A DNA stretch of 64,000 nt from a virus. The position numbers and the translations under genes are program-made. The notes under the pieces are model-generated. The model had not been told where the DNA came from. It ran no database searches and saw only the letters and a program-made list of their open reading frames with translations. Of this stretch, positions 7,388-58,509 are shown in pieces. The stretch lies in the IMG/VR virus record IMGVR_UViG_3300021963_000030, one strand, 5' to 3'. Each line of letters opens with the position of its first letter. Position 1 is the stretch's first letter.

Positions 7388-7409
7388 TTGATAATTATAT
7401 TTATAACAT

Positions 7410-21620: not shown

Positions 21621-23617
21621 TGGCACAAATAATTAACAAGACTTTTAGAGCAAATACTAAAGACGTAAATTACGTTAATAGAGATTTTGCATCTTTGAAG
21701 CAACAACTCATTGACTTTACTAAGCAATACTACCCACAAAGTTATAGAGATTTTAGTGAAAGTTCTCCAGGCCAAATTTTTATCGAACAAGCTGCTTATG
21801 TAGGTGACATATTGTCATACTACACTGATCAACAGTTCAAAGAAAGTTTTGTTCAATTTGCTACAGACAGAAGAAATTTGATCAACCAAGCTAGATACTT
21901 GGGATACAAACCAAAGGTTACATCGGCAGCAGCAACCGACCTGGAACTGTTTCAGTTGGTTCCAGCAAAAAGAATTGGTGAGGTAGATGCAGAATATGTC
22001 CCAGACGACACTTATTGTTTGATATTGAAACCATATACACAATTGTCAAGTGTGTCTGGCGTGCCATTTTTGATTGAAGAGAGTGTAGATTTTAGTCAAG
22101 ATACGGTATTCTCTCCAAGAGAAGTTTCTGTTTATAACCGTGATGAAACTGGAGCACCACTATTTTATTTGATTAAAAAGACAGCTAAATCATATGCTGG
22201 TAAGTTAGTTGTAAAACAAGTTAGTGTTGGAACTGCAACTCCATTCTTACAAATCAAATTGGATGCTACAGATGTATTAAAAGTAACAAGTGTAATTGAT
22301 AGTAATAATAACAACTATTACGAAGTTCAATATCTAGCACAAGAAACCATTCCTATCTCGGTTGATAATGTTCCTCTTACAAACCAAACATTGTCTAAAT
22401 ACAGAGGTGAAACACCAAAGTTGTTGAAGTATCTAAGAACCGAAAATCGTTTTATTACAACAATCGATGAAGATAACTTTACTTATATTCAATTTGGTGC
22501 TAACACGGAAAACTTTGATAATACAGTAATTATACCAAATCCGTCTAACGTAGGTGTATCTGTATCAAATCTAGGTAATCTTGATATAAGTTTGGATGGA
22601 ACCAATGTATTAAAGAGTAATTCATATGGTGTTTCTCCATCAAACACAACGTTGACAATTACTTACATTGTTGGTGGTGGTGTAAACTCAAACGTCAACT
22701 CTGGAGAAATCAATACGATTAGTGGAGTTAGTTTGATGAACGATATTACTGGACTAACTGACAGTCAAGTAACATTGTTCAATAATATTAGAAATTCTTT
22801 GAGGGTAAACAATCCACTATCAGCAACCGGTGGTGATGGTCCAGAGACCGATGAACAAATCAGACAAAATGCTATAGCAAACTTTTCGTCTCAAAACAGA
22901 ATTGTGACCGAAGAAGATATACTACTTCGTGTTTATTCGATGAGTCCACAATTTGGTAGTATAGCTAAAGCATATGTTCAGTCAAATGCTACGAGACAAA
23001 TAGCTTACACAGGTTTGATTAGTGGTGTGATAACTGGATCGTCAGCTCAAAATGAACTATTGAACTTGAATCCATTGAACCCACTTGATCGTAGAAAGTT
23101 CTTGGAATCAAACAATCCATTTACAAACAATTTGTATATTCTAGGATACAATATTGATAAAAAACTCACACCATGTAATGAAGCTACTTTGTTGAACTTG
23201 AAGAATTATTTGAGTCAATACAAGATTCTTACTGACCGTTTCAACGTGATTGACGGTTATGTAATCAACATTGGAGTTGAATTTAAAATTACAGTCTTTG
23301 CTGGATTCAATAAACGTGATGTGTTGAATGAATGTATTGCTTCAGTTCAAGCATTTTTTAATATCGATAACTGGGGATTCAATCAACCAATCAATTTGAG
23401 TCAATTAACATTCGAAATAATGAAGAACGAGGGAGTTCAATCTGTTACGGATGTCAGCATTAAGAATTTGACTTATGATATTGATGGATCTCAATATTCA
23501 CCTATAGCATATGATATTCAGATTGCTACACAAAACAACATCGTGTATCCTTCAAAAGATCCATCGATTTTTGAGGTTAAGTTTCCAGATACCGACATTA
23601 AAGGATTAGTAGTATAA
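21620..23617 (+). CDS. Baseplate wedge subunit, gp6-like
   Basis: YVNRDFASLKQQLIDF..YVGDILSYY; GGDGPETDEQIRQNA..QNRIVT BaseplateJ/gp6 motifs. Confidence 0.9.
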   Translation: MAQIINKTFRANTKDVNYVNRDFASLKQQLIDFTKQYYPQSYRDFSESSPGQIFIEQAAYVGDILSYYTDQQFKESFVQFATDRRNLINQARYLGYKPKVTSAAATDLELFQLVPAKRIGEVDAEYVPDDTYCLILKPYTQLSSVSGVPFLIEESVDFSQDTVFSPREVSVYNRDETGAPLFYLIKKTAKSYAGKLVVKQVSVGTATPFLQIKLDATDVLKVTSVIDSNNNNYYEVQYLAQETIPISVDNVPLTNQTLSKYRGETPKLLKYLRTENRFITTIDEDNFTYIQFGANTENFDNTVIIPNPSNVGVSVSNLGNLDISLDGTNVLKSNSYGVSPSNTTLTITYIVGGGVNSNVNSGEINTISGVSLMNDITGLTDSQVTLFNNIRNSLRVNNPLSATGGDGPETDEQIRQNAIANFSSQNRIVTEEDILLRVYSMSPQFGSIAKAYVQSNATRQIAYTGLISGVITGSSAQNELLNLNPLNPLDRRKFLESNNPFTNNLYILGYNIDKKLTPCNEATLLNLKNYLSQYKILTDRFNVIDGYVINIGVEFKITVFAGFNKRDVLNECIASVQAFFNIDNWGFNQPINLSQLTFEIMKNEGVQSVTDVSIKNLTYDIDGSQYSPIAYDIQIATQNNIVYPSKDPSIFEVKFPDTDIKGLVV

Positions 23618-30469: not shown

Positions 30470-30515
30470 TATCAATTTTGATGTAAAACATAAAATCTCT
30501 GATAATTATTTATAT

Positions 30516-31157
30516 ATGGCATACTTAGACAACAATGTGATCACGATCAACGCGGTCTTGACCAAGAAGGGTCGTGAAATCCTAGCAAAAACAGGTGGAT
30601 TAAACATTACAGCATTTGCTTTGGCAGATGATGAGATTGACTATACACAGTTCAATCCAGACCATCCGATGGGAAGTGCTTATTACGATATTGCGATTCG
30701 TAATACACCAGTTATGGAACCTATCACTGATGAATCACAGTTGATGAAGTATAAGTTGGTTACACTTAATCAAGGTGTTACTGCGGTTCCTACAATCAGC
30801 GTAGCACAATCTGTTATTACGGTTGATAGAGATTATACAGGCGATATTAGTATTAGTCCAAGCACCAATCCAACTTACAACGTAACTTTGGGCTATACTG
30901 CAATTTTGGCAAACAAGAATGTAGGAACGTTAATTGTAACAGAAACCAACAGTTTGAACTCTACCACAGCAACCGTTCCATCGTTCTCTGGCGATTTAGC
31001 ATCTCAAACTTCTCAAGTTGTGGTAGGTAACAAGTTTAGATTCGTTCCAAATGCGTCTTTGGCAAAAACCACCACCACAAATATTACTATCATAGGTAAC
31101 GAAAGTGGTGGAAATACGTCAATTACGGTTACTGTAAGAGTCCCAACAACAACTTAA
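30516..31157 (+). CDS. Baseplate or tail structural protein
   Basis: AVLTKKGREILA..ITAFALADDEIDY, resembling tail-collar fibre N-terminal domains; late motif at 30507. Confidence 0.65.
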   Translation: MAYLDNNVITINAVLTKKGREILAKTGGLNITAFALADDEIDYTQFNPDHPMGSAYYDIAIRNTPVMEPITDESQLMKYKLVTLNQGVTAVPTISVAQSVITVDRDYTGDISISPSTNPTYNVTLGYTAILANKNVGTLIVTETNSLNSTTATVPSFSGDLASQTSQVVVGNKFRFVPNASLAKTTTTNITIIGNESGGNTSITVTVRVPTTT

Positions 31158-31165: not shown

Positions 31166-32278
31166 ATGATATTTAGTCAATTTACAAGTGATGACATTGT
31201 AGTAGGTAGAATAAACCAAGTATCTTCTGGATTATTCGGAACTGGTAGTTTGTATGTAACTCAATCTAGATTTACTACATCTTCCGCACAAGCAAATAAT
31301 CTTACAGGATCTTCTCCATTCGATGTCAAAAATGGACAGTATTACTTGAACGTTTTATTGGACGGCGAAACATATTTTGCTATTGCTTACGGTGACTACG
31401 AAAATAGCGGTAGTTCTAAGTATGATAACGCATCGTTGTCAAATCCGCCAGTATTGACCAACGAATCCAAGGTAATTTATTCTCAATACAAAAACACATT
31501 GTTGCAACCAGGCGATCAATTGTTCTCGTTTGCTTCAGGCAGTATTACAACTCCAGTTGATAGTGAGAACATATTTGTAATGAATTATTCGTCTGATAAG
31601 ATCAAAGATCAATTGGACCCAGGTCAAATTCAAATCAATTTGTCTGGATCTAGCGGATCATATTCTTACATCGATGATTCGCAAGTAATCAATAAACAAC
31701 AAAACGTATATAATTTGATTTCTGGATCAGTTATCGCGGGTGTTGCTACTCCATATCTTGTGAATGGAAGTCCAGTATATGCTGGTATCGGATTGTTCTA
31801 TCCATCAAATGGTGTGGTTATTTTTAATGCTGAAAAGGTTGATAAACAAGTTGGTCTTACAAGAGGCAATGATATTTTGACTAGACTTGCAAATACTCCA
31901 TCAAATTATAATGGATTAAACTCTTATCAAAATGCGTATCGTTTGTGGCAAAGGTCATTCTTTAATGCTGTAAAGCTCAGTCGAAAGACAATGGCAGCCC
32001 GTAAGAGTGAGTTTGTTCCATCTACAAACTACTTCGTTCGTGTGAAGAACAAGGAGTTTAATTATAGTAACAATCCTACATTTGTATCTGATGGAACTGA
32101 TGGACTTACCAAGGGAACAATCATCTATCAAGATTTGATCAACAATCCAAGAACTTATATTACCAGTGTTGGTTTGTATAACTCTAACAATGAACTACTT
32201 GCTATCGGTAAGATCAGTAGACCAGTTCAAAAGAGTTTTGATAGTGAACTGTTGATAAAAGTCCGTATCGATTTCTAA
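31166..32278 (+). CDS. Baseplate or tail structural protein
   Basis: C-terminal YITSVGLYNSNNELLAIGKISRPVQK collar-type motif. Confidence 0.65.
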   Translation: MIFSQFTSDDIVVGRINQVSSGLFGTGSLYVTQSRFTTSSAQANNLTGSSPFDVKNGQYYLNVLLDGETYFAIAYGDYENSGSSKYDNASLSNPPVLTNESKVIYSQYKNTLLQPGDQLFSFASGSITTPVDSENIFVMNYSSDKIKDQLDPGQIQINLSGSSGSYSYIDDSQVINKQQNVYNLISGSVIAGVATPYLVNGSPVYAGIGLFYPSNGVVIFNAEKVDKQVGLTRGNDILTRLANTPSNYNGLNSYQNAYRLWQRSFFNAVKLSRKTMAARKSEFVPSTNYFVRVKNKEFNYSNNPTFVSDGTDGLTKGTIIYQDLINNPRTYITSVGLYNSNNELLAIGKISRPVQKSFDSELLIKVRIDF

Positions 32279-32299
32279 TACAATCCTATTTATATTAGG

Positions 32300-33943
32300 A
32301 TGATCAAGTTTTTTAGAAATCAAGATATTATTTTGACTCCATTCACTCTTGCGAAACCGCAGGAGATGAATAGTATTTTCAATGATCTAATTGCGGTGAA
32401 TGATGGAGACGAAGTTTATGCACTATCGACTCCAACTTTGGCATGTGATGATACGACTTCTGGTAGTTGTTATGAAACTACAGTTGAAGGATTTTTAGGA
32501 GTAAGTCAGTTTGATGATGGAATAGCTCTCCAGATAGGTATTTACGTTCCATCAAGTTCTGTATTTTACCCAAGTGGAAGTCCAGATTATAATGCTTCGA
32601 CAAATCCTCAAAATTTGGACGGAACTTATCAACGTCAAGTTTATAATACAGTCAAAAAGATGTATTATAACAACTACAATAACGCATACAACATGTTTGG
32701 TATTGATGGGTATGACAACTCGTTGATGACAAGCAGTCTTACAAACGATATATCTGTTTTTAGTTTGACCATCAGTCAAGCAGGCGACAAAATCAGACCA
32801 AATACGGTTGTAATAAGTAATCAAAGTGGTGACATCGTAGCAGACATAATTGATGATGGAAATTACAACTTGATACTTTCTGGAACTTACTTTATAAACA
32901 AATATCCATTAAGTTCCGATTCAAGAGATTTGACTACTCCTTTGAATATTTGTGGTTTGGGTGCATATTTGTCAGATCCATATAATATTGAACCATGTTG
33001 TAATATAACTCCAACTCCCACACCTACTCCAGCTCCCACATCAACGCCAACTCCTACGCCAACACCTACTGCTACAAGCACACCAACTCCTACTGCTACT
33101 GCAACTCCTACGCCTACTGGCGCGCCAACAAATACGCCTACACCAACTCCGACCAATACGCCTACGCCAACACCTACAAATACCCCTACAAACACTCCAA
33201 CGGCTACTCCAACTCCAACCCCTGAACCTCCGACTGCTACGCCAACACCTACCCCAACTGCTACACCAACACCAACACCTGGTGGACCAACTGCAACTCC
33301 AACTCCTACACCAACTCCCACACCTACAAACACTCCAACGCCTACACCAGAACCGCCTACACCTACTCCGGTTCCTACAAATACACCTACCCCAACTGTC
33401 ACACCTACTCCGACGCCTACGCCTACACCGGAACCACCAACTCCGACGCCTACTCCTACTCCAGCGCCTGGTGACTTTTTTTACGTTGAAGCACGTATCT
33501 TTGGATCTTGTTCATCTGAACCCAATTGTATTGAATATCCTTCGTGCGTCCCATGTTGGGATGGAACGGGTGTTCAAGATTTGTGTCCTCCAGGAAATAT
33601 TGCGGTGAGTGTTACTGTTACTACTTATAACCAAGGTGGCGCCATAATGGAAAGCGTAGGCGACGAACAATCAACAATTTCATGTGGTGTAGTCCCATCA
33701 CAAAAAGTTGTGACTATACGATATAATTCGGCATTCCTAGGAGTAACAAGTTCTAATACAGCAATACAAGTTGTAAAGACAGAACCAAGGCTCGATAATA
33801 TAACAGGTTGTTGCACAACAATAACATCTCCAGGCACACCTAATACAGTTGATGATATTATTGCAAAAATAAATTATGCTATAAATAATAGCCTTGGATC
33901 TGGAACAGTTGGCGATCCATATCGCATGGATGTTTTCACCTAA
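32300..33943 (+). CDS. Virion protein with a mucin-like Pro/Thr repeat and Cys-rich flanks
   Basis: About 150-aa (PT)n tract; late motif at 32287; last gene of the structural run before the GT cluster. Confidence 0.85.
33008..33469 (+). repeat. Coding low-complexity Pro-Thr repeat
   Basis: TPTPTP.. encoded with mixed ACN/CCN codons. Confidence 0.95.
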
Positions 33944-33988
33944 TTATATCTAATTTCAAGATTGATGTAAGTCTATGTATAATGAGTT

Positions 33989-35236
33989 ATGTCTAAAATA
34001 TTTGTTCAAATTGCCAGTTATAGAGATCCTGAGTTAGTTCCTACAATTAGAGATTTAATTGCTAAAGCCAAATATCCAGAAAATTTGACATTTGGTATAT
34101 GTTGGCAACGTGATGATACCGAGTCACTAGAAGAGTTTACTAATGACCCACGGTTCAGAGTGATGGATGTTCAGTATCAAAAAAGTGAGGGTTTGGGTTG
34201 GGCTAGAAATATAACACAAAAGCTTTGGAAAGACGAAGAATTTACATTACAAATTGATTCACATCATCGATTTGTTCAAGATTGGGATGCGATGTGTATT
34301 GAAGATTATAATCAAGCGTTAGAACTTAGTAAGAAACCAATCATTACAACATACTGCACCCCATTTAATCCAAAAGATGATCCGTCTACTTGGAATCCAG
34401 TTCCTTGTTTGATGAGTCAGTATGAGTTTTCATATGATAAATTGTTGATGAGTATGCCTTGGTTTATTCAAGACTATAAATCAAGAACTAAGGTAATTCG
34501 TGCCAGAACATTATCTGGACATTTTATTTTTACACAAGGAAAGTTCTGTGAGGAGGTTCAGTATGACCCAAGAGTATACTTTGGTGGATACACAGAAGAA
34601 ACGTCTATGAGTTTGAGAGCATACAGCCACGGGTATGATTTCTTCTCACCATACAGAATGATTATGTGGCATGAGTATACCAGAAACTATCGTGTCAAAC
34701 ATTGGGATGATCATGGTCATAAGACAGAACAAATTAAAGTCACCAGCGGAGAACGTGATGTTTTATCTCGTAACCTAGTCAGACAGTTGTTTGGTCAAGA
34801 AAATCATAATATACCATTTGGAGTTTATGGTTTAGGAACTGAACGGACTTTGCGTGACTATGAAGTTGCGTTTGGATTTGATTTTAAGAAGTGTAGAATT
34901 CAAGGTTATACCCTTAAGGTTAATGAACCACCTAATCCAGGCGTGTGGGAAGAAGAGTTTAAACTTGAAAACTACAATATGGTCGTAAATTGGGATGTTG
35001 AGTTTTTCAAAAACAATCAGTTGGATGGATATGAGTTCATAACATTTGGAATATTGGATAAGTTCAGTAATAACTTATATCGTCAAGATTTCAACCCGAA
35101 AGAACATCCCAATATTTTCAATTATACACAAAATACTCACACTGCGAAGTTTGCTAGTGAGAACAAACCGGATAAACTGGTTATGTATGGTCATACAAAA
35201 GCTGGATGGTCTCCTCGATATGAAAAGAGTATATGA
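33989..35236 (+). CDS. GT60-like polypeptide GlcNAc-transferase (Pfam GlcNAc-type)
   Basis: IFVQIASYRDPELVPTIRDL, GLGWARN, LQIDSHHRFVQDWD and EETSMSLRAYSHGYD motifs. Confidence 0.85.
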   Translation: MSKIFVQIASYRDPELVPTIRDLIAKAKYPENLTFGICWQRDDTESLEEFTNDPRFRVMDVQYQKSEGLGWARNITQKLWKDEEFTLQIDSHHRFVQDWDAMCIEDYNQALELSKKPIITTYCTPFNPKDDPSTWNPVPCLMSQYEFSYDKLLMSMPWFIQDYKSRTKVIRARTLSGHFIFTQGKFCEEVQYDPRVYFGGYTEETSMSLRAYSHGYDFFSPYRMIMWHEYTRNYRVKHWDDHGHKTEQIKVTSGERDVLSRNLVRQLFGQENHNIPFGVYGLGTERTLRDYEVAFGFDFKKCRIQGYTLKVNEPPNPGVWEEEFKLENYNMVVNWDVEFFKNNQLDGYEFITFGILDKFSNNLYRQDFNPKEHPNIFNYTQNTHTAKFASENKPDKLVMYGHTKAGWSPRYEKSI

Positions 35237-36327
35237 GAATCGCATTTCTCGTCATAGGAAACACAAGTAGGAGTGGTGTTATCACCGGTAAAAATATAAG
35301 ATACGGCGGATCTAGTTGCTCTGGAACCGAGAGTAGTGTAATTTATGTTGCGGAGTATCTAAAAAAGATTGGACATGACGTAACTATAGCACTTGAGGTT
35401 TGCGATAAAGCTGAAGTCTGTGGTGGCGTCTTATACACAGATTTTTCTTTTAAAGGTGATGATACAAAAGAATATGATGTGTTGGTATCATGTTTGTGGT
35501 TTAATAAATATGATGAATTACCGATCAAAGTAACCAAGGCGGTTGTATATTGGTATCACTTGGCATGGGGATATGCTATGAACGATATGGTTAAGTTTGC
35601 CAAAGATAATAACTTAATCATCGGCACTATATCCGTATCGAATTGGGCAAAAAAAGAAAACGAATCATACAATGTTCCATTTAAGAATTACTCGGATAGA
35701 TATATTGAAGAGGTAATTCCAAATTCGTTAGATGTCCATCTGATCAATTCAGTTTGGAACAAAAAAATTCAAAGAAAAAAACATAAAATCATTCATTTTG
35801 GTCAATGGTCCAGAGGTGGAGACATCGCAAAAAATACCGCATATGAATTAGGGTGGGATGATTTGGTATTTGAGAGTTTTGATTATTTGGATTCGGAACG
35901 GGGGCTTGATAAGACTACACTATATACAAAACTCGCCGAGAGTGATTACTATATATTTCCACTTTTGACTCATGGAAAACTTGTTTATCAAGATACATTT
36001 TCTGTGTCAGTCGCTGAAGCATTAGCTATGGGTGTGACCGTAGTAACATATCCGTTGGGAGCAATACCAGAATATTTTGGTGACTATTGTAAATTTATTG
36101 ACTTTCCAAATGGCGTAAATATGGATGTGTTGTCTAAACTGCGTGTATTTGAAGAACCTAGATTTTCAGACACAACTAACATAATTAAACTGATTAATAC
36201 GATTGAACAAAGTGATGTCAGTGAGTATGACAGAATTTCACAACGTGAGTATATCTGTAATTCATTCAACGTTGAATTTGTAGGTAGTAAATGGAACAAT
36301 TTTCTGAACAACTTATGTATGATTTGA
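35233..36327 (+). CDS. GT-B fold glycosyltransferase (GT4-like)
   Basis: SGTESS..GHDVT; DTFSVSVAEALAMGVTVV donor-binding motif. Confidence 0.85.
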   Translation: MRIAFLVIGNTSRSGVITGKNIRYGGSSCSGTESSVIYVAEYLKKIGHDVTIALEVCDKAEVCGGVLYTDFSFKGDDTKEYDVLVSCLWFNKYDELPIKVTKAVVYWYHLAWGYAMNDMVKFAKDNNLIIGTISVSNWAKKENESYNVPFKNYSDRYIEEVIPNSLDVHLINSVWNKKIQRKKHKIIHFGQWSRGGDIAKNTAYELGWDDLVFESFDYLDSERGLDKTTLYTKLAESDYYIFPLLTHGKLVYQDTFSVSVAEALAMGVTVVTYPLGAIPEYFGDYCKFIDFPNGVNMDVLSKLRVFEEPRFSDTTNIIKLINTIEQSDVSEYDRISQREYICNSFNVEFVGSKWNNFLNNLCMI

Positions 36328-36421
36328 TAGCATTAAAAGATCGTATTTACACAACAATCATAGACCATGAAGATGTTTTTTGTGTGAGTAATGAATACTT
36401 AAAACAACTGGGTAATAATTT

Positions 36422-37081
36422 ATGAATAAAATCGGAGTAGATGTGTATGAAAATTTCAGCCCCATGTATCCATTAGATATGCATGGGTGGATGGCAAATT
36501 CTGAGATATTTGAAAAGTTAATAACAAAATGTAGACCAGATACCATCATAGAAGTTGGAACTTGGAAAGGTAGATCTGCAATAACAATGTCAGAGATTGT
36601 AAAAAAACTAGGACTGGATTGTAAAATATATTGTATAGATACTTGGCTTGGCGCTTTAGAATTTTGGGGCAACGATATTCCTGTAGAAAAGAATTTGTTT
36701 TTGAAGAATGGATATCCACAGATATATTATCAATTTTTGTCCAACGTTGTTCATACAAACAATCAAGATATTATTACACCCGTGCCTCTTCCATCAAATT
36801 TAGCGGCTAAATTGTTGAAAAATAATCAAATAAAATCTCAACTTATTTATATAGATGGTTCACATGAAACCGATGATGTATATGCGGACATGACTAACTA
36901 CAGTAAATTATTAACCCCAGGCGGAATAATGTTTGGTGATGATTATACTTGGTATACCGTAAAAGACGGAGTTCGTAAATTTGTTGATGAAAATAAATGT
37001 GGACAAAATATGACTTATGAGTTTGATCCAAATCCAGAAGCAGGTCCTATAAATTGGATATATGAAAAACCCAAATTATGA
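36422..37081 (+). CDS. Class I SAM-dependent methyltransferase (Methyltransf_24-like)
   Basis: IEVGTWKGRS, LIYIDGSH and GGIMFGDDY motifs. Confidence 0.9.
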   Translation: MNKIGVDVYENFSPMYPLDMHGWMANSEIFEKLITKCRPDTIIEVGTWKGRSAITMSEIVKKLGLDCKIYCIDTWLGALEFWGNDIPVEKNLFLKNGYPQIYYQFLSNVVHTNNQDIITPVPLPSNLAAKLLKNNQIKSQLIYIDGSHETDDVYADMTNYSKLLTPGGIMFGDDYTWYTVKDGVRKFVDENKCGQNMTYEFDPNPEAGPINWIYEKPKL

Positions 37082-37851
37082 AATTAGGATTATTTTACCA
37101 ATCGGGACATAAAATCGAAGCGTGTTATTTTGCGCTAGAACAGTTTAGAAAATTTTATCCATCTGAACCTATAGCTCTGTGGGAAGATAATACTAATATA
37201 TTGGTTCCTGTTTCTAGGAAATTTAACTGTGATTATAAAAAAACAACTATTCCAGGATTAAACACGACGACTTTGGGAAGGCCTGTATATAATTTAGAAA
37301 CATTGTTGTCTTGGTATGATAGAGTTTATGAATCATGTTTGACGACATTGAGTTCCGCAGATTGGGTTATGAATTTTGAAGACGATGTTTGGTTTAAAAA
37401 AAGAATTGAAGGAGAACCACCTTTTGATTTATCTGGAATTCTTGGCAGAGGTTGGCATGACGATTTGTATAATCACCTACAAACGTCTGTTAAAGGGTGT
37501 TTTGGATGTGGCGGGTCTATATTTAACCGATTGAAGTTTATAGAAGCATATAATAAACTAAAAAATGTAGATTGGCAATTGATAGATAATTTAGCTAAAG
37601 ATCCAAAACCGACCGAGTGGACTGATTCTGGTTTAACATTTCTATTTTATTATTCTAAGTTTAGTGTTGGTGGTTGGGTGGAGTTATCGCAATATAGATC
37701 TCAAAAAATACATGCTTTACATGATCTCGACTGTTGGTGGGAATCTATTAATAATAACAATGGATCTGTCATTCATGGGTTCAAACCATACTATTTTCCC
37801 ACTTTAGATCAAACAGATTACGTAAAAACTAATTTACTTCAATATTTATAG
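37078..37851 (+). CDS. Glycosyltransferase-like protein (GT-A)
   Basis: WVMNFEDDVW acidic motif, GCGGSIFN; overlaps the methyltransferase stop. Confidence 0.55.
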   Translation: MKLGLFYQSGHKIEACYFALEQFRKFYPSEPIALWEDNTNILVPVSRKFNCDYKKTTIPGLNTTTLGRPVYNLETLLSWYDRVYESCLTTLSSADWVMNFEDDVWFKKRIEGEPPFDLSGILGRGWHDDLYNHLQTSVKGCFGCGGSIFNRLKFIEAYNKLKNVDWQLIDNLAKDPKPTEWTDSGLTFLFYYSKFSVGGWVELSQYRSQKIHALHDLDCWWESINNNNGSVIHGFKPYYFPTLDQTDYVKTNLLQYL

Positions 37852-37854
37852 TAA

Positions 37855-40440
37855 ATGTCGAATCTGTTAAACATCTATAACGAGAACTTTGGACAACATG
37901 TAGTCACGAATGGTGCTTACATAGCTGTGTCAAACACCAACTCAAAGCCATACTCTTGTGAGGAGGGATTTGCTAGAATTGGCGAAGTGGTAATTTATCA
38001 AAAAAATAGATTTTCTACGAACTATTCTTTTGCAAAGACGTATAGAAACGAAGTCGAGAGTCGAGGCGACATTTTGTCATACTACACAGAACAAAGTGCG
38101 AGTGTCGATTTTACGGCTTCTTTGAGATACGAAAGTGGATCTTACACTGACAACTCATTAGCATGTGACTTTTTGGTATTGGAAGATGGAACGGTAATTT
38201 CTAAACAAACTTCGTTTGGATCTGCATTAGCTATGTGTGATCGATTCTTAGCAATATCAGATATTGCATTTAGTCAAAGCATAGCAAATATTGATCAAAA
38301 TTATGCATCCGTGTATATCTACAAGTTCTTTGACGAAAATATTACGGGATCATGTTCTGTAGAAAATAATGATTTGTTTACTTTGCCAGATCTTCCAATT
38401 TGTGGAATAACAGGTTCAGCCGCTGAAGGATTTGGTAGATCAGTAGCAATTTCTGACAACTTCTTAGCAATAGGATCACCATTCAAAAATTCAAACAGTG
38501 GGTCAGTTGACATTTATTTGTATACTGGATCTGGTTGTGGATATTATTTGTATTATCAAACTATAACTTCTTCAAATAACGCTGATGCGTATTTTGGAAC
38601 ATCTTTGTATATCGATAAATTTGATGAAAACAAATTGGTAATATCATCTGGACCACAAACAGATAGTAAAGTATTTGTTTACTTCAGAGAAGGAGATATA
38701 AAAACTGGAACGTGGGAATTGACTCAAACAATTTCTCAAGATACTTCATCAAAGTGGTTAAGAATAGAAGGAGATCAAGATCTTGAGTGGTTTCCCATCA
38801 GTCAAACGAATACTAGGTATGGTTATTCAGTAGCAGTTGCTAAAAATAATTTGATCGTAGGTGCTCCTAACGATCTTATTTACTACGAGTATAGTAGTTC
38901 ATTGGCACTTACTGGGTCACAACCTTTAAGACAAAGAGGCGCTATTTACTATTACAGTTTGCCTGTGACCGGATCAAAAGAATTTGCACTAGTAGAGAAA
39001 ATCTACGGTGATACAAATACATTCAAAGACAACATGTTTGGATATAGTGTTGATATAAACAACCAATATGTTCTTGCTGGATCTCCAAAACGATATTTTC
39101 CATTTTCTAGTTTGTATTTGTCCGCATCTGTTGATAGATACAATACAAATTTTGAGGTAAATGATTTTGGTGCTAGCACATTTAACGGACAAGCCATGTT
39201 GTATAAGATATCGACTGACGTTTGTCCAGATCAATTGACTTTGAAGATGGCAACAACCACACCTATAGGATACAGAAAGAAGGTGGGTGAGTCTTTCACA
39301 GCGTTTGGTGCATCTGTTGCATTGTCCGAACAAAACTTGGTTATAGGTTCACCAGCACCATTGAATAATGACATGTATTTGGCGGAACCATATGCGGTAG
39401 AACAAAGTGGTAGTGGTGAGTTTAATTGTAATGGTGATGACCCAACTGATGTAGTTTATCTTAGAATGGAAGATGAGATTTGTGATTGTAGTGGATATGA
39501 TTTGAATTCTGCTCAAAGTGGTTCGATTGTGTTTATTGAAGAGACAGATGCAAATGTTGTTGCAAGTTTATATGGTAGAGCTTTTATCTATGATTTTAGT
39601 GATCTACAAACCAATCCAAACGTAGGTAACATATTCTATAGTTACAATAAGTTTGTGGTAAACAACACAGGCAGTATATTTGCGGATATTTTAAAGAACC
39701 CACTACAACCTCTTGATGATTACATTTATGGTGAATATCAAAGTCAAATAACCCTCCATGAAAAACAATATATCTGCACTGTAGAACCAGGCGAGTTCAA
39801 CATCTCTACCAATCCTACAGCTGTTACTTCTTCGTTGGTAGGACCATACTGTGTTATCAACAAAGATACATTTGACTTTAGTAACTTGGATATCATATTG
39901 AGGTATATCAACTATAAATTGACTTCTACACACGTTGAATCTTGGTGGGATGTGTTGGTATCTGGCGATGTTCAAGAAAGTATATTTGGATTCTTCACAT
40001 CATCCGTAGTTGATTACACAGACAATCGATTGACACCAGAGTTGTTATGTGAATTAGGAACCAAAAATTTTGACGTAAATAAAGATGGTATGATCAATTA
40101 TGCAGATGCGTATATGATCTGGAACTACTTTATACAAAATTTGACAATTGAAAATTATCAACAGTATGTTGGTCCTACTTCAAAGAGAAAGAACTATGAC
40201 GATATTATTGCGTTTCTGGATGAACAAACTGGCAAAGGTAATCAGAATACAGTAAAAGCTGAGTTCTTTGATTATAACTTCAGTTCGTCTGTGGACCCAA
40301 CCGGTTCTTATTTGGCACCGTATATTACTGAGGTTGGTTTGTATGCTGGTGCAGATCTTGTAGCGGTTGCTAAGTTAGCAAGTCCTATCAAAAACAACGG
40401 TCAAATTCCAATAAATATTGTTGTTAAATGGGACACATAA
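37855..40440 (+). CDS. Virion protein with FG-GAP-like propeller repeats, a dockerin/EF-hand-like loop and a collar-type C-terminus
   Basis: FGRSVAISDNFLAIGSP, YGYSVAV..LIVGAP, FGYSVDI, FGASVAL; FDVNKDGMINYADA; PYITEVGLY..VAKLASPIK. Confidence 0.75.
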   Translation: MSNLLNIYNENFGQHVVTNGAYIAVSNTNSKPYSCEEGFARIGEVVIYQKNRFSTNYSFAKTYRNEVESRGDILSYYTEQSASVDFTASLRYESGSYTDNSLACDFLVLEDGTVISKQTSFGSALAMCDRFLAISDIAFSQSIANIDQNYASVYIYKFFDENITGSCSVENNDLFTLPDLPICGITGSAAEGFGRSVAISDNFLAIGSPFKNSNSGSVDIYLYTGSGCGYYLYYQTITSSNNADAYFGTSLYIDKFDENKLVISSGPQTDSKVFVYFREGDIKTGTWELTQTISQDTSSKWLRIEGDQDLEWFPISQTNTRYGYSVAVAKNNLIVGAPNDLIYYEYSSSLALTGSQPLRQRGAIYYYSLPVTGSKEFALVEKIYGDTNTFKDNMFGYSVDINNQYVLAGSPKRYFPFSSLYLSASVDRYNTNFEVNDFGASTFNGQAMLYKISTDVCPDQLTLKMATTTPIGYRKKVGESFTAFGASVALSEQNLVIGSPAPLNNDMYLAEPYAVEQSGSGEFNCNGDDPTDVVYLRMEDEICDCSGYDLNSAQSGSIVFIEETDANVVASLYGRAFIYDFSDLQTNPNVGNIFYSYNKFVVNNTGSIFADILKNPLQPLDDYIYGEYQSQITLHEKQYICTVEPGEFNISTNPTAVTSSLVGPYCVINKDTFDFSNLDIILRYINYKLTSTHVESWWDVLVSGDVQESIFGFFTSSVVDYTDNRLTPELLCELGTKNFDVNKDGMINYADAYMIWNYFIQNLTIENYQQYVGPTSKRKNYDDIIAFLDEQTGKGNQNTVKAEFFDYNFSSSVDPTGSYLAPYITEVGLYAGADLVAVAKLASPIKNNGQIPINIVVKWDT

Positions 40441-41528: not shown

Positions 41529-42440
41529 ATGGTAGAAACTTCGGTTATAGATACACTTACAAGACTTTTTAAACACAAACCGTCTGTCCAAAAGGGCGGA
41601 ACGGAGTTGATGTTTTTTTGTCCCAATTGTAATCACTATAAAAGGAAGTTGAACGTAAACACAACTACAGGTTATTATCACTGTTGGGTTTGTAATTTTA
41701 GTGGAAAAGGATTCAAGAGTCTTCTTAACAAAATCAAAGCTCCCGCAGAGTATTATGAATCTTTGTGCAAGATCAAGGCTCCTAGATCAATTAAGAGTGA
41801 TGTAAAGAAACTACATCTACCGTGGGAATTCAAACCGTTGTATCTTCACGATCATGATGTGATGTATAAACACGCTTTGAACTATTGTTTGAAACGTGGA
41901 TTGAGTGTGTATGACATAGTTCGTTACAACATAGGTTACTGTCCTTGTGGTCAGTTTAAGAACCGTGTTGTAGTTCCTTCATATTCTGCAACGGGTGAAC
42001 TAAACTTTTTTTGTGGTAGAGATATCTATGAAAGTAAGATGAAATATAGATTGTGTGAATCTACCAAAGATGTAATTGGATTTGAAATGTTCACAGACTT
42101 TAGTAAGCCTGTGACCCTAGTTGAAGGTGTATTTGACGCATTTTCTGTAAAATACAACGTGGTTCCGTTGTTTGGAAAAACCATGTCCAATAAACTCAAG
42201 GCTAAGATGACTACACAAAGGCCTCCTAGAGTAAATGTATTGTTGGACAACGATGCAATCAAGAGTAGTTTGGACATATGTCAATTTTTGGTATACAACG
42301 GCATCGATACACATCTTGTATTATTGGATGGTAAAGATCCAAATGAACTTGGACATAAAAATACTTGGAAAGCCATAGATGCCAGTGTTAAGATCTCCGA
42401 AAGCGATTTATTCAAATTGAAAATTAAACACAAGTTATGA
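41529..42440 (+). CDS. DNA primase
   Basis: CPNC..HCWVC zinc finger; RVVVPSY, LVEGVFDA and LLDND TOPRIM motifs. Confidence 0.9.
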   Translation: MVETSVIDTLTRLFKHKPSVQKGGTELMFFCPNCNHYKRKLNVNTTTGYYHCWVCNFSGKGFKSLLNKIKAPAEYYESLCKIKAPRSIKSDVKKLHLPWEFKPLYLHDHDVMYKHALNYCLKRGLSVYDIVRYNIGYCPCGQFKNRVVVPSYSATGELNFFCGRDIYESKMKYRLCESTKDVIGFEMFTDFSKPVTLVEGVFDAFSVKYNVVPLFGKTMSNKLKAKMTTQRPPRVNVLLDNDAIKSSLDICQFLVYNGIDTHLVLLDGKDPNELGHKNTWKAIDASVKISESDLFKLKIKHKL

Positions 42441-45400
42441 TAGTATTAAAAAACACAGATAGTAAGATCGACAATGTGATTCAGGTGTCTGATATTCATA
42501 TTCGTCTGACAAAGCGCCATGAAGAATATACTTCTGTATTCGAACGTTTTTATACTGTCTTGGACAAAATCAAGAAGAATACAAACTTGGTGTGCGTTAT
42601 CACGGGTGACGTATTTCACAACAAGAGTGATCTAAGTCCCGAGTGTGTCAAAATTGGTAGTGACTTTTTGAAGAACTGTGCGGATCGTGTTCCTACCATC
42701 TTGATTGCTGGTAACCACGATGCTACACTAGCTAATAAAAGCAGACTCGATTGTTTGACTCCGATTGTTGATGCTCTTCAACACCCCAACCTTTATTATC
42801 TCAAGCAAAGCGAAGTGTTTCGTTACGAAAACATTTTGTTCAATCACTTTAGTGTGTTTGATGAATGTGATAAGTATATCAAGTATGATTCTATCCCAGA
42901 TAAGCACAAACTATCAACGGATCATCACGTTGCGTTGTTTCACGGGCCAGTAAATGATGCGGTTACAGATGTTGGTTATACTGTGAGTAACAGAACCATC
43001 GTGAACGATCTGTTTGATGGTCATCATATTGCGATGTTAGGTGATATTCATAAACATCAGATTCTTCAAGAGTATAATGAAGATGAAAACAAGCCTGTGA
43101 TTGTTTATGCTGGATCGATGATTCAACAGAACCATGGTGAGGAACTCAAGGGTCATGGATTCTTGTTGTGGGATCTAAAGCGTAAGTTGTTTAAACACTA
43201 TGAACTTCCCAATGATTATGGTTTCTATACCATTGAAATCAACAAGGGTAAGTTGATCACCGATATTGCGGATATTCCCAAGAAGGCTCGTATCAGAACC
43301 AAGTGTTTTGAATCGATTCCATCACAAGTAAAAGAAGTGATTAATGAGATCAAGGACAAGTGTGAAATTCTTGAGTCAACATTTATTCGTATTGATGAAT
43401 TTGACAATAATACAACTAAGATCAATCAGGTTCTTGATATCCATAACATCTTTAATGTTGATTATCAAAACAAATTGATTGAAGATACGTTGGTGTCTAA
43501 GAAGACCAACAAGACTTTGATTGATAAAGTAAAGGAACTAAACAAGAATATTAATCTTCAAATTCCTAAAGATAAAACTCCAAAGAACATTCGATGGAAG
43601 CCTAAGACTTTTGAGTTTGACAATATGTTCAGTTATGGTGAAAGTAACTACATTGACTTTACCAAACTAAAGGGAACCATTGGTTTGTTTGCTCCTAATG
43701 CTAGTGGTAAATCTAGCATCATGGACGCACTTGCATTTTGTGTATTCGACAAGTTCAGTAAGGGATATAAAGCGGTTCATGTTCTCAACACACAAAAGAT
43801 GAGCTTCAAGTGTAAGTTCAATTTTGAAGTCAGTGGTGTTGATTACTTCATTGAACGTGAAGGTAAAGCCGATAAGAAGGGTGCAGTCAAGGTTGATGTC
43901 AAGTTCTATAAGATCGACAAGGATGGTCAAGAGGTGCCTTTGAATGGTGAAGCACGTAGATCAACCAACGATATTATTAGAGACTATGTTGGAACCTATG
44001 ATGACTTTATCTTGACGGTGTTGAGTATTCAGAACAGTAAGGCTGGGTCATTTATTGATCTTGGTCAGACTGAACGTAAGGATTTGTTGTGTCAATTTAT
44101 GGGTCTTAATATCTTTGATCAACTCTATAATATTGCGAATGAAAACTTCAAAGAGACCAATACATTGTTGAAGAATATCAGTAAAGACCAACTTGAATCG
44201 GATCTTACTAATATCTCTGGTAGTATTGATATTAATTTGACAAACATTGCCACATTCAATTCCGAGTTAAAGACACTAGAGTCCCAGAAAGAAGAACATA
44301 ACAATCACTTACTTCAACTCAGCAAGAATATTGTTAAGTTGGATTCTATTAAGTCTGTCGATATTACCGATCTGGAAAAAGATAAGATTGAACATGGAAA
44401 AAACATTGGTAAGTTCGAATCTTCAATTGCGGATAATAAGACCAAGTTAGAAGAAGTTGAATCTCAAATCACTTCATTGAGTTCGTCATTGAAGTTGTGT
44501 GAGAACATTGAGACTACTTATCAAGAATATAAGACTGTGAAGAAAGAACAAGAAACAAAACAGTCTCAGATTGATCAATTGAAGTTTGTCATAAAGACCA
44601 AGGTTGATAAACTCAAGAAACTTGAAGAACATAAGTATGATCCTAATTGTGAATACTGTGTTAATAACGTATTCGTGAAGGATGCTATTGCAACAAAACA
44701 AGACCTTGAAAATGAAAAGATCAATGCTTCTAACATCATTGCTGAGTTTAACAAAATAAAAGCAAAGGTAGAAGAATTTGGTGATATTGAGACAAGGTAT
44801 CAAAATTGTCAAAGCACCAATAACGATAGAATCAAATTGGAAAAACGTCGTGAAATATTGACCACATCAATTCTGCGTGATGAAAATTATTTGATTACGT
44901 TGAAAAACAAATTAAAGGAGACTATTGATAGTATTGATGCGTTCTATAAGAACAAAGATACTATTGAAAATAATCAGAAATTGTTGAATGAGATTGAAGA
45001 ACACAAGGGTCTGATCAAAGATATTGAATTGGAAATTAAGTCTGTAAATTCCAAGTTGTTTAACATTTCTACTGAGAAAGGTAGATTGGAGTTGCAGTAT
45101 AAGAATACTACTGATCAGTTGAATAAAGTAAAGGAGTTGGAAGATTCCTACGAAGCATACAAACTGTATACGTCAATTATAAGCCGTGACGGTATTCCAT
45201 ATGATGTTATTACCAAGACTTTGCCTGAGATCGAAAAGGAAGTTAACAATATTCTTCATCAAATTGTGGAGTTTAGTGTAACTCTTCAGACTGACGGTAA
45301 GAACATTATGACCAACATTGTTTATGATGACAAACGTTGGCCGCTTGAAATGGCTAGTGGTATGGAGAAGTTCATTAGTGGACTAGCTATCAGAGTCGCT

Positions 45401-45628
45401 TTGATTAATATTAGCAATTTGCCGAGACCCAATATTATATGTATTGATGAAGGTTTTGGTTGTGCTGATAGTGATCACTTGGGTCAAATGGGATCGTTAT
45501 TTACATATTTAAAACACCAATTTGAATTTATCTGGGTTATTAGCCATCTTGATCAAATGAGAGACATGGTTGATCAACAGTTGGAGATAAAGAAAGAAAA
45601 TGGGTATAGCAAGATCGATTTTCGGTGA
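42437..45628 (+). CDS. Fused SbcD/Mre11 nuclease and SbcC/Rad50 ATPase (gp47-gp46-like)
   Basis: SDIH, TGDVFH, AGNHD and GDIH phosphoesterase motifs; NASGKSS Walker A; CEYC zinc hook; ASGME signature; IDEGFG Walker B. Confidence 0.95.
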   Translation: MIVLKNTDSKIDNVIQVSDIHIRLTKRHEEYTSVFERFYTVLDKIKKNTNLVCVITGDVFHNKSDLSPECVKIGSDFLKNCADRVPTILIAGNHDATLANKSRLDCLTPIVDALQHPNLYYLKQSEVFRYENILFNHFSVFDECDKYIKYDSIPDKHKLSTDHHVALFHGPVNDAVTDVGYTVSNRTIVNDLFDGHHIAMLGDIHKHQILQEYNEDENKPVIVYAGSMIQQNHGEELKGHGFLLWDLKRKLFKHYELPNDYGFYTIEINKGKLITDIADIPKKARIRTKCFESIPSQVKEVINEIKDKCEILESTFIRIDEFDNNTTKINQVLDIHNIFNVDYQNKLIEDTLVSKKTNKTLIDKVKELNKNINLQIPKDKTPKNIRWKPKTFEFDNMFSYGESNYIDFTKLKGTIGLFAPNASGKSSIMDALAFCVFDKFSKGYKAVHVLNTQKMSFKCKFNFEVSGVDYFIEREGKADKKGAVKVDVKFYKIDKDGQEVPLNGEARRSTNDIIRDYVGTYDDFILTVLSIQNSKAGSFIDLGQTERKDLLCQFMGLNIFDQLYNIANENFKETNTLLKNISKDQLESDLTNISGSIDINLTNIATFNSELKTLESQKEEHNNHLLQLSKNIVKLDSIKSVDITDLEKDKIEHGKNIGKFESSIADNKTKLEEVESQITSLSSSLKLCENIETTYQEYKTVKKEQETKQSQIDQLKFVIKTKVDKLKKLEEHKYDPNCEYCVNNVFVKDAIATKQDLENEKINASNIIAEFNKIKAKVEEFGDIETRYQNCQSTNNDRIKLEKRREILTTSILRDENYLITLKNKLKETIDSIDAFYKNKDTIENNQKLLNEIEEHKGLIKDIELEIKSVNSKLFNISTEKGRLELQYKNTTDQLNKVKELEDSYEAYKLYTSIISRDGIPYDVITKTLPEIEKEVNNILHQIVEFSVTLQTDGKNIMTNIVYDDKRWPLEMASGMEKFISGLAIRVALINISNLPRPNIICIDEGFGCADSDHLGQMGSLFTYLKHQFEFIWVISHLDQMRDMVDQQLEIKKENGYSKIDFR

Positions 45629-45739: not shown

Positions 45740-48700
45740 ATGCCAATTCAAGAAGGTGGACGATGGAGTCCAACACAAAATATAGTAAGTCCTGGTGTTT
45801 TCACCAGAGAAAATGACTTATCGGGGCTAGCCCAAGGCGTAGCCAACATAGGTGGTGCAATCGTGGCTCCGTTCGCCGACGGACCTGCGTTTTTCCCAAG
45901 CGTGATCACAGACGTAGCAACACTAGAACAAAGATTCGGTATTGCTGACGGTGTATACTACGGTCCCTACACTGCAAAAGAATACCTCTTACAACAAGGT
46001 ATCGTAACCATAGTTCGTGTCGGCGGATTGACTGGTTACTGGCAAAAGAACCCATTGGTGGTTTATGCTGAACCAGGTCAATGGCTTAGAACTTGGGATA
46101 TTGGTGCTTTGACTACCGCTTCGTTTATGTATTTGAATAGTGGTGACTACACTGCTAATCTTCAATACGTTCACAGTGCTTCATCATGGGAAATCGAACC
46201 AAGTGCTTTAGTAAGAACCAATCCGCTTGCAGGTATCTGGATCACTGGTTCTAATACAACAAACCAACAAATTGCTGATTTCGTTGGTGCAAATTCAAGT
46301 TTGGAATACATCAATGATTTGTCTGCTTCTCTCGTAGCATTGAAAGATGCTGGTAAGTTGGTAAGTTTGACTACTTACAATGCTTATTCAGCATTTAGTG
46401 CCTCGGTTGTCGCAGCTGGACTTAAAGTCACCCCATCAGGTGGTGGTTCAGATCACGCTTTGGCATGGTTTGACGTAACTCAATGGGCACCATATGGTTA
46501 TGTTTACAAGTCTGGTTCTGGTGCATGGAGCACATTCCAAATTGATGATAACATTACTGGCAACATAGTCAACGGATTCCCAACTAACTCTGGATCTTAT
46601 TTGACTGCTTCTATCATCAAGGTTAACAATCAACAAGTTACCTTCCCATTCGTAGCATTGTCAACAAGTGTAGGTTCGAACGCTACAGTTTGTTCTCACA
46701 AAGAAACTGGTGCTAATACTACTTCTTCTCCATATTTCTATCCAACCTTTGATTGTTCTTACTTGACAATCAGTGGTAGCATTAATGCAAGATTTGGTAG
46801 TGCTGCTTTGACCAGTGGATTCCCATCCAACTACAATGGAACTGGTAATTTGAGTGGTAGTAAGTTGTATGCTGGTAAGCAAGTAAGTCTTGGAACTGTC
46901 GAGACTGCTCAGCTCAGCAGACGTTTCTACGGTGCTACTCACTTGGCTCCGTCTGGATCTGCTGGATTGTATTTCTACTTGAGTTCTAGTGCTCAAGGAA
47001 GTAGCACCGCTACAACAGAGACTCAAATTGCTACAGCAATTGCAGAAAGCACCGAAGTATCATTCTTGTTGACTTCAAGTTTGTTGAACCTTGGTTCTAC
47101 AACTTCTAACATCGCATTGGAATATGACCAAGATACGTTTGATGCTACAAGCGACTTGTATATTAAGAGTGGTAGCTTTGCTACTGTTCGTAGTGCCGCA
47201 ACTTGCGGTGCCGCATTGAGATTCTTGGGTCTTGTAAGTGGTTCTTACGGAGCATTTACAGGCAACTTCGAAGCTGATGGTTCGGGTGGTTCAGATCCAT
47301 GTAATCCATCTACAACAGGTCGTCAACCAGTTGTGCTCGCAGTATTGGCTAACACCCAAAATGCTTCGACACAATTCAGTAGCGATTATGAAGTATACGG
47401 ATTTGACACTTCTACTGTAAGTCAATTGACCAGTTCAGTATATCCATATCAAGGTATTGTCAATCCAAACGACAACGTTTATCAACTTATCTTGAGATAC
47501 AACTGGACTGATACAAACGGTGTGGTTTCTGACGGAACCTACGGTTATTATGACTTCAGCTTGAATGAAGATGACAACAACTATATCAAGGACGTATTCG
47601 GAATTGATCCAACTGTTGGTAATCCATCTAAGCAAATTGCTGGTCAAAAGGTAGAGGCTGCATATAACTACATCCTCTTCGAAGACACCATCAAGAAGTT
47701 TATTGCTGAAAAGACTCGTCCAAATGCTGAGGGTGGTGGTTGGAGATTGTTGGTAGCAACTGCTCCATCTGCTTCGTTTAGTGTTGGTGAGTCTATGAAG
47801 TTCTTGGATCAATACTCACTAGATCCTAACAGTGGTGATTCACAATTTGCTATCACAAATGCGAAGACCCCATGGTTCTATAGTCAACAAATTGCTCCAT
47901 TCAAGGGAAGTGCTGATGAAGCAGCTGTTCCTACCAAGTTCAAGTTGTTCAAGGTTCACACTCTCAGTGACGGTAGCTTGAGTAACAAGAAGTATAAGAT
48001 CGAAATTAGCAACGTTAAGTTGGCTGGAACTGTTCCAGGCAGCAATTGGGGTTCATTCACTCTTGCTGTTCGTGCTTACAGTGATACCGACAAACGTCCT
48101 AAGTATCTTGAAATCTTCCAAAACTTGAACCTCGACCCAGACAGTGCAAACTTCATTGCACGTCGTATTGGTGATCGTTACGCATACATTACCTTCGCTG
48201 GTAAGATTGTAGAATACGGAACTTACGTTAACTTGAGTCAGTTTATCAGAATCGAAATGACCGACATTGCTTATCCAGAAGTAGTCGTTCCTTACGGTTT
48301 CGAATCATACTCTGCTCCAGTAAACGGAACTCTAAGCAACATGTTGCCAGCAGTTCGTTACAGTAAGGCAAGTATCTATGGTCTCGCACCTGGTAAGTAT
48401 CCATCTGGAACTGTGTTTGGTGATGTTCCAGAAAGTGGTGCTCAAATCGCTGCTTTGTATCCTACCGCTTCGTTTGGAGTAGGTGTCGCAAATGATACAA
48501 AACAATACTTCAAGCCTCTTCCATCCTACGGTGGTTCAGATCAAAACGGTGAAAACATCGACTTTGATTTGGAAGCAAAGGTATGGGGAACAGCAGACTG
48601 TTCTTACTATGCTCAAGGCGTATCGGCAAGCACCGGTTCGTTACTTGCTCCAAGTTTGAGTGGTAGTATTCCATCGGTATACGATCCAGTCAATGAATCT

Positions 48701-49760: not shown

Positions 49761-49798
49761 GTTTTGTATTTTTACTATAATCTGTATATTTATATGAG

Positions 49799-55854: not shown

Positions 55855-55909
55855 TATAAATCCGATGATTTTCCAAATTTCAATATATTTATAATTATTA
55901 GAGAACTAT

Positions 55910-58488: not shown

Positions 58489-58509
58489 TTTGAACCCTAT
58501 TTATAGCAT

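Follow-up and report, generated by a model that had tools for sequence, protein, structure and literature searches.

Enzymes of the GT60 (PF11397) family are polypeptide alpha-N-acetylglucosamine (GlcNAc)-transferases of protists: Gnt1 of Dictyostelium acts on hydroxyproline of Skp1, and mucin-type enzymes of Dictyostelium and Trypanosoma cruzi act on Thr/Ser. To our knowledge, the family has so far been characterised only in protists. The serine-rich repeat adhesins of streptococci and staphylococci, such as GspB and Fap1, are glycosylated in the cytoplasm without a lipid carrier by GtfA/GtfB and further transferases encoded at the locus, which add GlcNAc and then more sugars. Giant viruses (chloroviruses, mimivirus) decorate their particle proteins with virus-encoded glycosyltransferases, often using methylated sugars; we know of no pairing of a GT60 enzyme with a Pro/Thr (PT) tract in these viruses. 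As far as we know, mycobacteriophages are the only phages whose particles have been shown to be glycosylated by enzymes of the phage itself; there, the glycans shield the particles from antibodies. Here, we describe a candidate glycosylation system in a 64,000-nucleotide stretch of viral DNA (IMG/VR record IMGVR_UViG_3300021963_000030; the window, meaning the whole stretch analysed), in which the gene of a protein with a long PT tract (32300-33943) is followed by four enzyme genes (33989-37851; the cassette).

For Che8, Rita and other mycobacteriophages, passages in two papers describe phage glycosyltransferases that modify the phage's own particle proteins (Freeman et al. 2023; PMC11256854, PMC12619734), and one of these passages gives the C-termini of the major capsid and tail-tube subunits as experimentally demonstrated acceptors (PMC12619734). 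By analogy, this appears to be the biologically closest known system. Judged from these passages, phage-encoded enzymes give those particles a glycan coat by acting on the phage's own proteins in the host cytoplasm, and the enzymes of the window are predicted to do likewise. The two cases differ in the presumed acceptor, which in this T4-like aquatic phage is a baseplate-region protein with a long, mucin-like tract in its interior, and the initiating enzyme would here be of the GT60 type.

The mode of action would most resemble serine-rich repeat adhesin glycosylation, although the enzymes are not common to both. There too, one locus combines a Ser/Thr-rich repeat protein with several soluble transferases, and the repeat stalk presents a binding domain. 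However, initiation is performed there by the GT-B pair GtfA/GtfB and here presumably by a GT60-type GT-A enzyme, export by the accessory Sec system (SecA2/SecY2) has no counterpart here, and the substrate is a bacterial adhesin there and a phage protein here. Searches of Pfam and PHROG gave no match of the cassette proteins to GtfA/GtfB or accessory Sec families.

In the comparison with the protist enzymes, the phage protein is a clear PF11397 member with the conserved D-x-H motif, it carries no hydrophobic segment and would be soluble like Gnt1, and its presumed acceptor is Thr/Pro-rich like those of the mucin-type enzymes. Moreover, the GT25, GT11 and Glf genes of phage relatives recall the galactose/fucose (Gal/Fuc) extension of the Skp1 glycan and the galactofuranose (Galf) on trypanosome mucins. 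In contrast to the protist systems, the enzyme is phage-encoded and would act in the bacterial cytoplasm, with donor sugar and linkage predicted, and the extenders in the window would be a GT-B enzyme, a GT-A enzyme of an unnamed family and a methyltransferase. Giant viruses resemble the present case in their host-independent set of glycosyltransferases and methylated sugars, but they infect eukaryotes and, in chloroviruses, make atypical N-links. Full-text searches on GT60 or on Pro/Thr-tract glycosylation in phages retrieved no publication that connects enzymes of the GT60 type with Pro/Thr proteins.

Our favoured reading, to which we assign a probability of roughly 0.65, is that the four enzymes constitute a soluble cassette for protein O-glycosylation, encoded by the phage, that acts stepwise in the cytoplasm on the Pro/Thr stalk of the baseplate or fibre protein encoded directly upstream.

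Four predicted enzymes follow a protein with a Pro/Thr tract

All five open reading frames (ORFs) of the initial annotation were recovered on the + strand at the coordinates it gave. The first encodes the tract protein of 547 amino acids (aa), which consists of three parts. Its N-terminal domain of about 228 aa (32300-32983) has a conserved core with 17 invariant columns in alignment A1 and exists as a stand-alone protein of 206-248 aa in most related phages. The tract, initially put at about 150 aa, covers 168 aa (residues 229-396; 32984-33487) with 37% P, 40% T and 1% S, and is the proposed O-glycan acceptor stalk. Its coding DNA repeats only imperfectly (73-82% matches), which suggests that the tract is kept as a composition and is not the product of fresh slippage. 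The end of the stalk carries a Cys-rich C-terminal domain of 151 aa with 8 Cys (33488-33943), which is 34-52% identical wherever it can be matched in relatives. A structure atlas search with this domain returned only weak beta-sandwich resemblances (template modelling (TM) score below 0.5), from which we draw no conclusion. The post-tract domains of relatives have 4-13 Cys, an uncommon feature in proteins synthesised under the reducing conditions of a cytoplasm. In addition, a conserved Cys-Cys pair lies immediately before the tract, both in the window (32975-32990) and in several relatives (L056, L058, L060, L063 and L065).

The first enzyme gene (33989-35236, +) encodes a GT60-type glycosyltransferase, as initially annotated. 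It matches Pfam PF11397 ('GlcNAc') with an E-value of 7.9e-57 and 193.7 bits against a cut-off of 21, the best stretch spanning profile positions 97-351 of 352, and PHROG 24687 with an E-value of 1.7e-93. A set of 20 diverse homologs, with identities down to 37%, shares residues D90-S91-H92-H93 and H228 without exception. The D-x-H motif formed by D90-S91-H92 is presumably the metal-binding catalytic motif of the GT-A type, as in GT27/GT60 enzymes. By its sequence, the protein is a true PF11397 member with a predicted enzyme activity, and has 4854 relatives among metagenome proteins.

The second gene (35233-36327, +), whose start overlaps the stop of the GT60-type gene, had been annotated as a GT-B enzyme of family GT4. 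Its product matches PHROG 2170 'glycosyltransferase' (E 9e-8), and sub-threshold matches to Glyco_trans_1_4 and Glycos_transf_1 recur in 11 and 10 of 14 family members, respectively. These weak, consistent matches make a GT-B enzyme probable, which we propose as an extender, whereas the specific label GT4 stays below threshold and is better given as GT4-like.

The third gene (36422-37081, +) encodes a class I S-adenosylmethionine (SAM) methyltransferase of the Methyltransf_24 / CmcI-RMNT-like type (E 3e-16; 60.6 bits, cut-off 26.3), in agreement with the initial annotation. It also matches RMNT_CmcI (CmcI/rhamnosyl-O-methyltransferase; 33.5 bits, cut-off 23.2) and CmcI in the PDB (E 2.5e-4), and is possibly a sugar O-methyltransferase. 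The gene was not found in the cassettes of the nearest relatives, which carry GT25 or GT11 genes instead, and therefore seems to be a variable accessory. The methyl-capping of the glycan suggested earlier is a guess.

The last gene (37078-37851, +) encodes a protein of 257 aa from an unnamed viral family. No Pfam family matched it, and thus none that is linked to CAZy. An AlphaFold model built with 39 homologs reached a predicted local distance difference test score (pLDDT) of 93.6. In Foldseek it had 326 PDB matches at an E-value of 0.001 or better; those listed were nearly all GT-A transferases, and the top matches were all GT-A transferases (E ~1e-6, TM ~0.5). Its neighbours in the structure atlas were GT8 enzymes, and the acidic DXD-type motif E101-D102-D103 is invariant in the 39 homologs. 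Going by the model, the protein is a GT-A-fold glycosyltransferase, and the earlier description as GT-A-like can be kept.

The tract gene and the four enzyme genes are packed in an operon-like manner. Going from the tract gene to the FG-GAP-repeat gene behind the cassette (37855-40440, +; 861 aa; FG-GAP_2, E 4.6e-18), the first, third and fifth junctions are gaps of 45 nucleotides (nt), 94 nt and 3 nt, and the second and fourth are overlaps of 4 nt. The stretch from the tract gene to the GT60-type gene contains no terminator-like site. None of the four enzymes contains a hydrophobic segment, and no flippase, polymerase, lipid-carrier or priming phosphotransferase family was matched among the cassette ORFs scanned.

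Tract and cassette co-occur among related loci

To compare related phages, 80 viral loci were anchored on a conserved backbone gene of 213 aa (30516-31157, +), which is 68-99% identical in the loci kept. Each locus was scored for an N-domain homolog, a P/T/S tract and the distance to the FG-GAP gene; absence of a cassette was scored in tract-less loci with at least 3 kb of downstream DNA (n=58). In the majority layout the anchor gene is followed by a 370-aa gene, then by the stand-alone N-domain protein of 206-248 aa and, 3-70 nt later, by the FG-GAP gene. The 370-aa gene (31166-32278, +) lies directly upstream of the tract gene in the window and has the same position in nearly all anchored loci; its product had no family match in Pfam or PHROG searches.

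None of the 58 tract-less loci contains a cassette. Their N-domain homolog is a bare protein of 206-376 aa with the next backbone gene directly after it, so that in cassette-less relatives the FG-GAP gene directly follows the short N-domain form. Larger gaps in three tract-less loci are explained by a split or divergent FG-GAP gene, with no insert. In contrast, all ten tract-bearing loci with downstream sequence, including the window, carry a glycosyltransferase cassette before the FG-GAP gene, and the tract-bearing N-domain proteins end in a Cys-rich C domain. On the N-domain tree, the tract state changes four times if only well-supported branches are counted, and up to six times otherwise. 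The synteny of tract and transferase genes, which the initial annotation had proposed as a check, is therefore found in the clade of the window, with at least four independent changes. In a survey that covered genome fragments of relatives, a PT-coding pattern gave 0 matches in 791 kb of five cassette-less relatives, and in four cassette-bearing relatives the matches listed fall in narrow clusters consistent with tract genes.

The cassettes themselves are not uniform. The window, L056 and L058 combine GT60 with GT-B; L060, L062, L065 and L106 have a tandem GT60 protein of about 870 aa; L083 has a GT32 enzyme; and L125 has two GT2 enzymes and an FkbM methyltransferase. Because the enzyme families differ between loci, the cassettes, by their gene content, are not a single block that was copied around. 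Taken together, these comparisons give good comparative support for a functional coupling of stalk and enzymes. The tandem GT60-type proteins (~870-900 aa; L060:13601-16300, L062:13460-16072, L065:14502-17117 and L106:13581-16184) look like a tandem or fused double transferase; in the one scanned (L106), PF11397 matched in four stretches and the second half had a weak GT2 match.

Cassettes of close relatives carry GT25, GT11 and other genes in place of the methyltransferase. Genes of the GT11 (alpha-1,2-fucosyltransferase) family, of GT25 and for UDP-galactopyranose mutase (UDP, uridine diphosphate) are located in relatives' cassettes at L001:13798-14646, L009:14950-15774, L009:15776-16885 and L016:10349-11428. 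Judging from this gene content, the composition of the glycan probably varies from strain to strain, with fucose and galactofuranose as possible constituents.

Between the tract gene and the GT60 gene, some close relatives encode a second tract protein of 574-602 aa with 139-163 PT residues (L003:8182-9942, L001:8218-9942 and L005:8135-9943), which the window does not have. We considered it as a paralog of the first tract protein and rejected this, as the two are unrelated.

GT60-type genes in other phages and in bacteria

Outside this clade, 21 viral GT60 loci with upstream DNA were available. In 15 of them a tract ORF lies directly upstream of the GT60 gene on the same strand, and in one further locus tract ORFs flank it on the other strand. 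A GT-B gene is adjacent to the GT60 gene or one gene apart in 21/21 loci that extend past GT60. For instance, L016, which has a different backbone, encodes a collagen-like tail fibre, a tract ORF, a GT60-type enzyme, a GT-B enzyme and UDP-galactopyranose mutase, with terminase and portal later on. The globular parts of the tract proteins are mutually unrelated; the tract therefore behaves like a portable module. In favour of a role in virion glycosylation, the cultured Xanthomonas phage XacN1 encodes a GT60 homolog (36% identical), and its virion reportedly contains at least two glycoproteins (PMC5852040).

GT60 homologs of 35-45% identity are also encoded by Acidobacteriota, Verrucomicrobiota and Alphaproteobacteria. 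Some bacterial genome bins of Vicinamibacterales and Opitutaceae (L173:5229-9995, L199:8460-10001 and L174:8601-9953) have between one and three P/T/S-tract ORFs immediately 5′ of a GT60-type gene and in the same orientation. Tract and GT60 may thus be paired in bacteria or their prophages as well.

Structural context and a common upstream motif

An octamer, TATTTATA, is located 5 nt before the ATG of the tract gene (32287-32294, +). Together with its complement it occurs 21 times in the window, against 5.7 expected. In the structural part of the window, it lies 1-19 nt (mostly 1-5) 5′ of the ATG of seven + strand genes, at 7398-7405, 30507-30514, 32287-32294, 37843-37850, 49787-49794, 55886-55893 and 58498-58505; these sites include those of the tract gene, of the anchor gene at 30516 (directly before its ATG) and of the FG-GAP gene at 37855. 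Because TATTTATA is so close to the start codons, it suggests a late promoter whose mRNAs have little or no leader, or else a signal for translation in a host that does not use Shine-Dalgarno sequences. It is absent 5′ of all four enzyme genes, which may therefore be expressed by read-through from the tract gene or have a control of their own.

The nearest cultured relative of the anchor gene is found in Flavobacterium phage immuto (43% identity, hypothetical protein), where baseplate wedge genes lie on one side of it and genes with tail fibre and tail spike annotations on the other. We infer that the tract protein is a late structural or virion protein, because its gene follows a gp6-like baseplate wedge subunit gene (21620-23617, PHROG match), is syntenic with the baseplate/tail-fibre block of immuto and shares the TATTTATA motif.

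A proposed cytoplasmic O-glycosylation pathway

The pathway would run as follows. The tract protein would be made late in infection in the host cytoplasm, where the GT60-type enzyme would start the chain by moving a sugar from a nucleotide sugar to a hydroxyl group of Thr (or Ser) in the tract. If it works like the GT60 enzymes that have been characterised, UDP-GlcNAc would be the donor and GlcNAc the first sugar. Extension, one sugar at a time, would fall to the GT-B and GT-A enzymes, and the methyltransferase would possibly methylate a sugar. The product would be a stiff, bottle-brush-like stalk of roughly 40-50 nm (at ~0.25-0.3 nm per residue), which would keep the Cys-rich C domain away from the conserved N domain docked in the baseplate or fibre region. 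In this scheme we infer the acceptor, the sugar, the order of steps, the location in the virion and the benefit to the phage. Roles in protease shielding or adhesion, as suggested in the initial annotation, are speculation.

A direct cytoplasmic transfer without a lipid carrier is proposed because the enzymes have no hydrophobic segments, no flippase, polymerase or priming families were matched, and the genes lie inside a structural operon. As to the linkage, the composition of the tracts ranges from PT (P37/T40 in the window) over S/V/P/T (S27/V17/P22/T16 in L060) to poly-T (T37/S11/P6 in L125); in these sequences Ser/Thr, not proline, is the common element. In addition, no prolyl 4-hydroxylase (P4H)-type gene (PF13640) was found in the records of five relatives, which are fragments of 66-304 kb. 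For these two reasons a Thr/Ser O-linkage is favoured over the hydroxyproline route of Skp1 (P4H plus Gnt1), which was considered and rejected, and which marks a further difference from the Skp1 pathway. The window does encode a 2-oxoglutarate dioxygenase of the TauD/TfdA family directly after the major head protein gene (63040-63819, E 7.7e-18). This gene was not found in the records (fragments) of ten relatives, with or without a cassette, and therefore no link to the cassette can be shown.

Several findings weigh against this pathway. One GT60 clade (5/21 loci: L011-L014 and L022) lacks tract genes over a distance of 10 kb; one record of this clade has tract ORFs about 60 kb away. In XacN1, the GT60 homolog lies beside a carbamoyltransferase gene and near replication genes, with no tract gene nearby. 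Among bacterial homologs, a tract ORF is located within 3 kb in 15/80 loci, a figure that has no proper background rate, and none in 65/80. Within the clade of the window, the cassette changed in the same way as the tract in all four independent pairs (p = 0.125), but this number is too small for significance, and tract and cassette, being physically adjacent, could travel as one recombination block without a functional link. The N domain had no match by sequence in Pfam, PHROGs, the PDB or cultured phages, and its structure prediction from a 25-sequence alignment was unusable (pLDDT 45); the proposed placement in the virion comes from synteny and the common upstream motif. As to the enzymes, the GT-B candidate scores below the cut-off for Glyco_trans_1_4 (E 4e-5; 24.3 bits, cut-off 27), and neither it nor the GT60-type protein gave a usable match in single-sequence and profile searches of PDB sequences, the best E-values of the GT-B profile search being only 0.38-0.55.

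The initial annotation had counted transferases that occur independently of tract genes as evidence against its O-glycosylation reading. Such cases exist (L011-L014, L022, XacN1 and the 65 bacterial loci), whereas in the clade of the window no cassette occurs without a tract. The reading as a whole is partly supported: the identities of the genes and the co-occurrence of tract and cassette speak for it, and the tract-less GT60 clade and XacN1 against it.

If the reading is true, abundant phages of lakes and seas would use a soluble enzyme family, otherwise known from protists only, to build inside bacteria the mucin-like glycoprotein stalks that are a hallmark of eukaryotic surfaces. These stalks would be a new type of hypervariable appendage that serves host recognition or protection. 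This would explain the thousands of PF11397 genes in environmental viromes (4854 relatives) and would provide compact enzymes for defined O-glycans on Thr/Pro peptides in bacteria. That the system is a further form of phage-encoded glycosylation of phage proteins is partly supported by the sequences, and the co-occurrence of tract and cassette is the main new evidence. A broader proposal, which we put forward tentatively and hold for somewhat improbable as a whole, is that large aquatic phages have a modular 'tag and coat' system. Any particle protein that gains a Ser/Thr/Pro tract would become a substrate of a soluble GT60-led cassette, mucin-type stalks would be made in the bacterial cytoplasm, cassettes would be swapped between strains to vary the coat, and PF11397 genes would represent the prokaryotic and viral pool of the family.

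Alternative acceptors

The main rival to glycosylation of the stalk is linkage without function. Here the glycan would be destined for another acceptor, such as a host envelope polysaccharide, lipopolysaccharide (LPS) or a small molecule, the tract would be a flexible linker, and the two would co-occur because a hypervariable fibre locus is swapped as a block. The adjacency of tract and cassette fits this, as linkage alone could suffice, and so do the GT25, GT11 and UDP-galactopyranose mutase genes in relatives' cassettes, which are best known from LPS or polysaccharide synthesis. The bacterial GT60 homologs, most of which have no tract ORF nearby, and the phage clade and XacN1 without adjacent tracts point in the same direction. 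However, four cassette types of different families are each paired with a tract, and no tract-less locus has a cassette. The cassette proteins scanned had neither a membrane segment nor a match to a flippase, polymerase or priming transferase, and the genes lie inside the structural block of a phage of the T4-like lytic type, unlike the serotype-converting genes of temperate phages. Moreover, the proline content varies between tracts while Ser/Thr is always kept. We therefore regard this explanation as unlikely, even though it is the strongest competitor.

Somewhat less likely again is that the cassette glycosylates particle proteins with a main acceptor other than the tract, for instance the FG-GAP protein, the capsid or the tail tube. 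Known virion glycosylation in phages, as described in a passage of PMC12619734, affects the C-termini of capsid and tail-tube proteins; the cassette also lies directly before the FG-GAP gene, and the tract-less GT60 clade must use another acceptor. Against this, the FG-GAP gene is present both with and without a cassette, whereas the tract is present only with one, and GT60 genes on other backbones directly follow a tract ORF whose globular parts are unrelated.

A hypermodification of phage DNA with sugars, as by the T4 glucosyltransferases and related multi-enzyme systems, is very improbable. In its favour, DNA glucosylation is classically associated with T4-like phages, a passage of PMC12619734 mentions virus glycosyltransferases that make a variety of DNA glycans (Pyle 2024), and the cassette is soluble. 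Against it, PF11397 is known for protein acceptors, the cassette lies inside the structural block, and the link to the tract would be left unexplained. Weak evidence against it also comes from the most complete GT60-bearing relative (78%), in which no gene of the thymidylate synthase (hydroxymethylase) family was found.

Genomic setting of the window

The window has a G+C content of about 36%, and its + strand carries nearly all long ORFs. No near-identical DNA was found for it among cultured phages. Besides the wedge subunit, PHROG matches identified a tail sheath (45740-49711), a large terminase (52240-53853), a portal (53878-55854) and a T4-type major head protein (61246-62976), and the window is therefore part of a T4-like myovirus. 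Further PHROG matches, between 40973 and 45628, correspond to a RuvC-like resolvase, a primase and an SbcCD-like nuclease.

Three other features were observed. A Nucleotid_trans (PF03407) glycosyltransferase-like gene (1400-2116, E 1.2e-7) is located beside a tRNA island, 30 kb from the cassette. The sheath gene encodes 1323 aa, of which only residues 1024-1321 match the sheath family, and its ~1000 N-terminal residues are an unexplained extension. Finally, the 1063-aa ORF at 42437-45628 has an SbcD-like match at residues 9-339 and an SbcC-like match at residues 288-1061, and by these matches looks like a fused nuclease.

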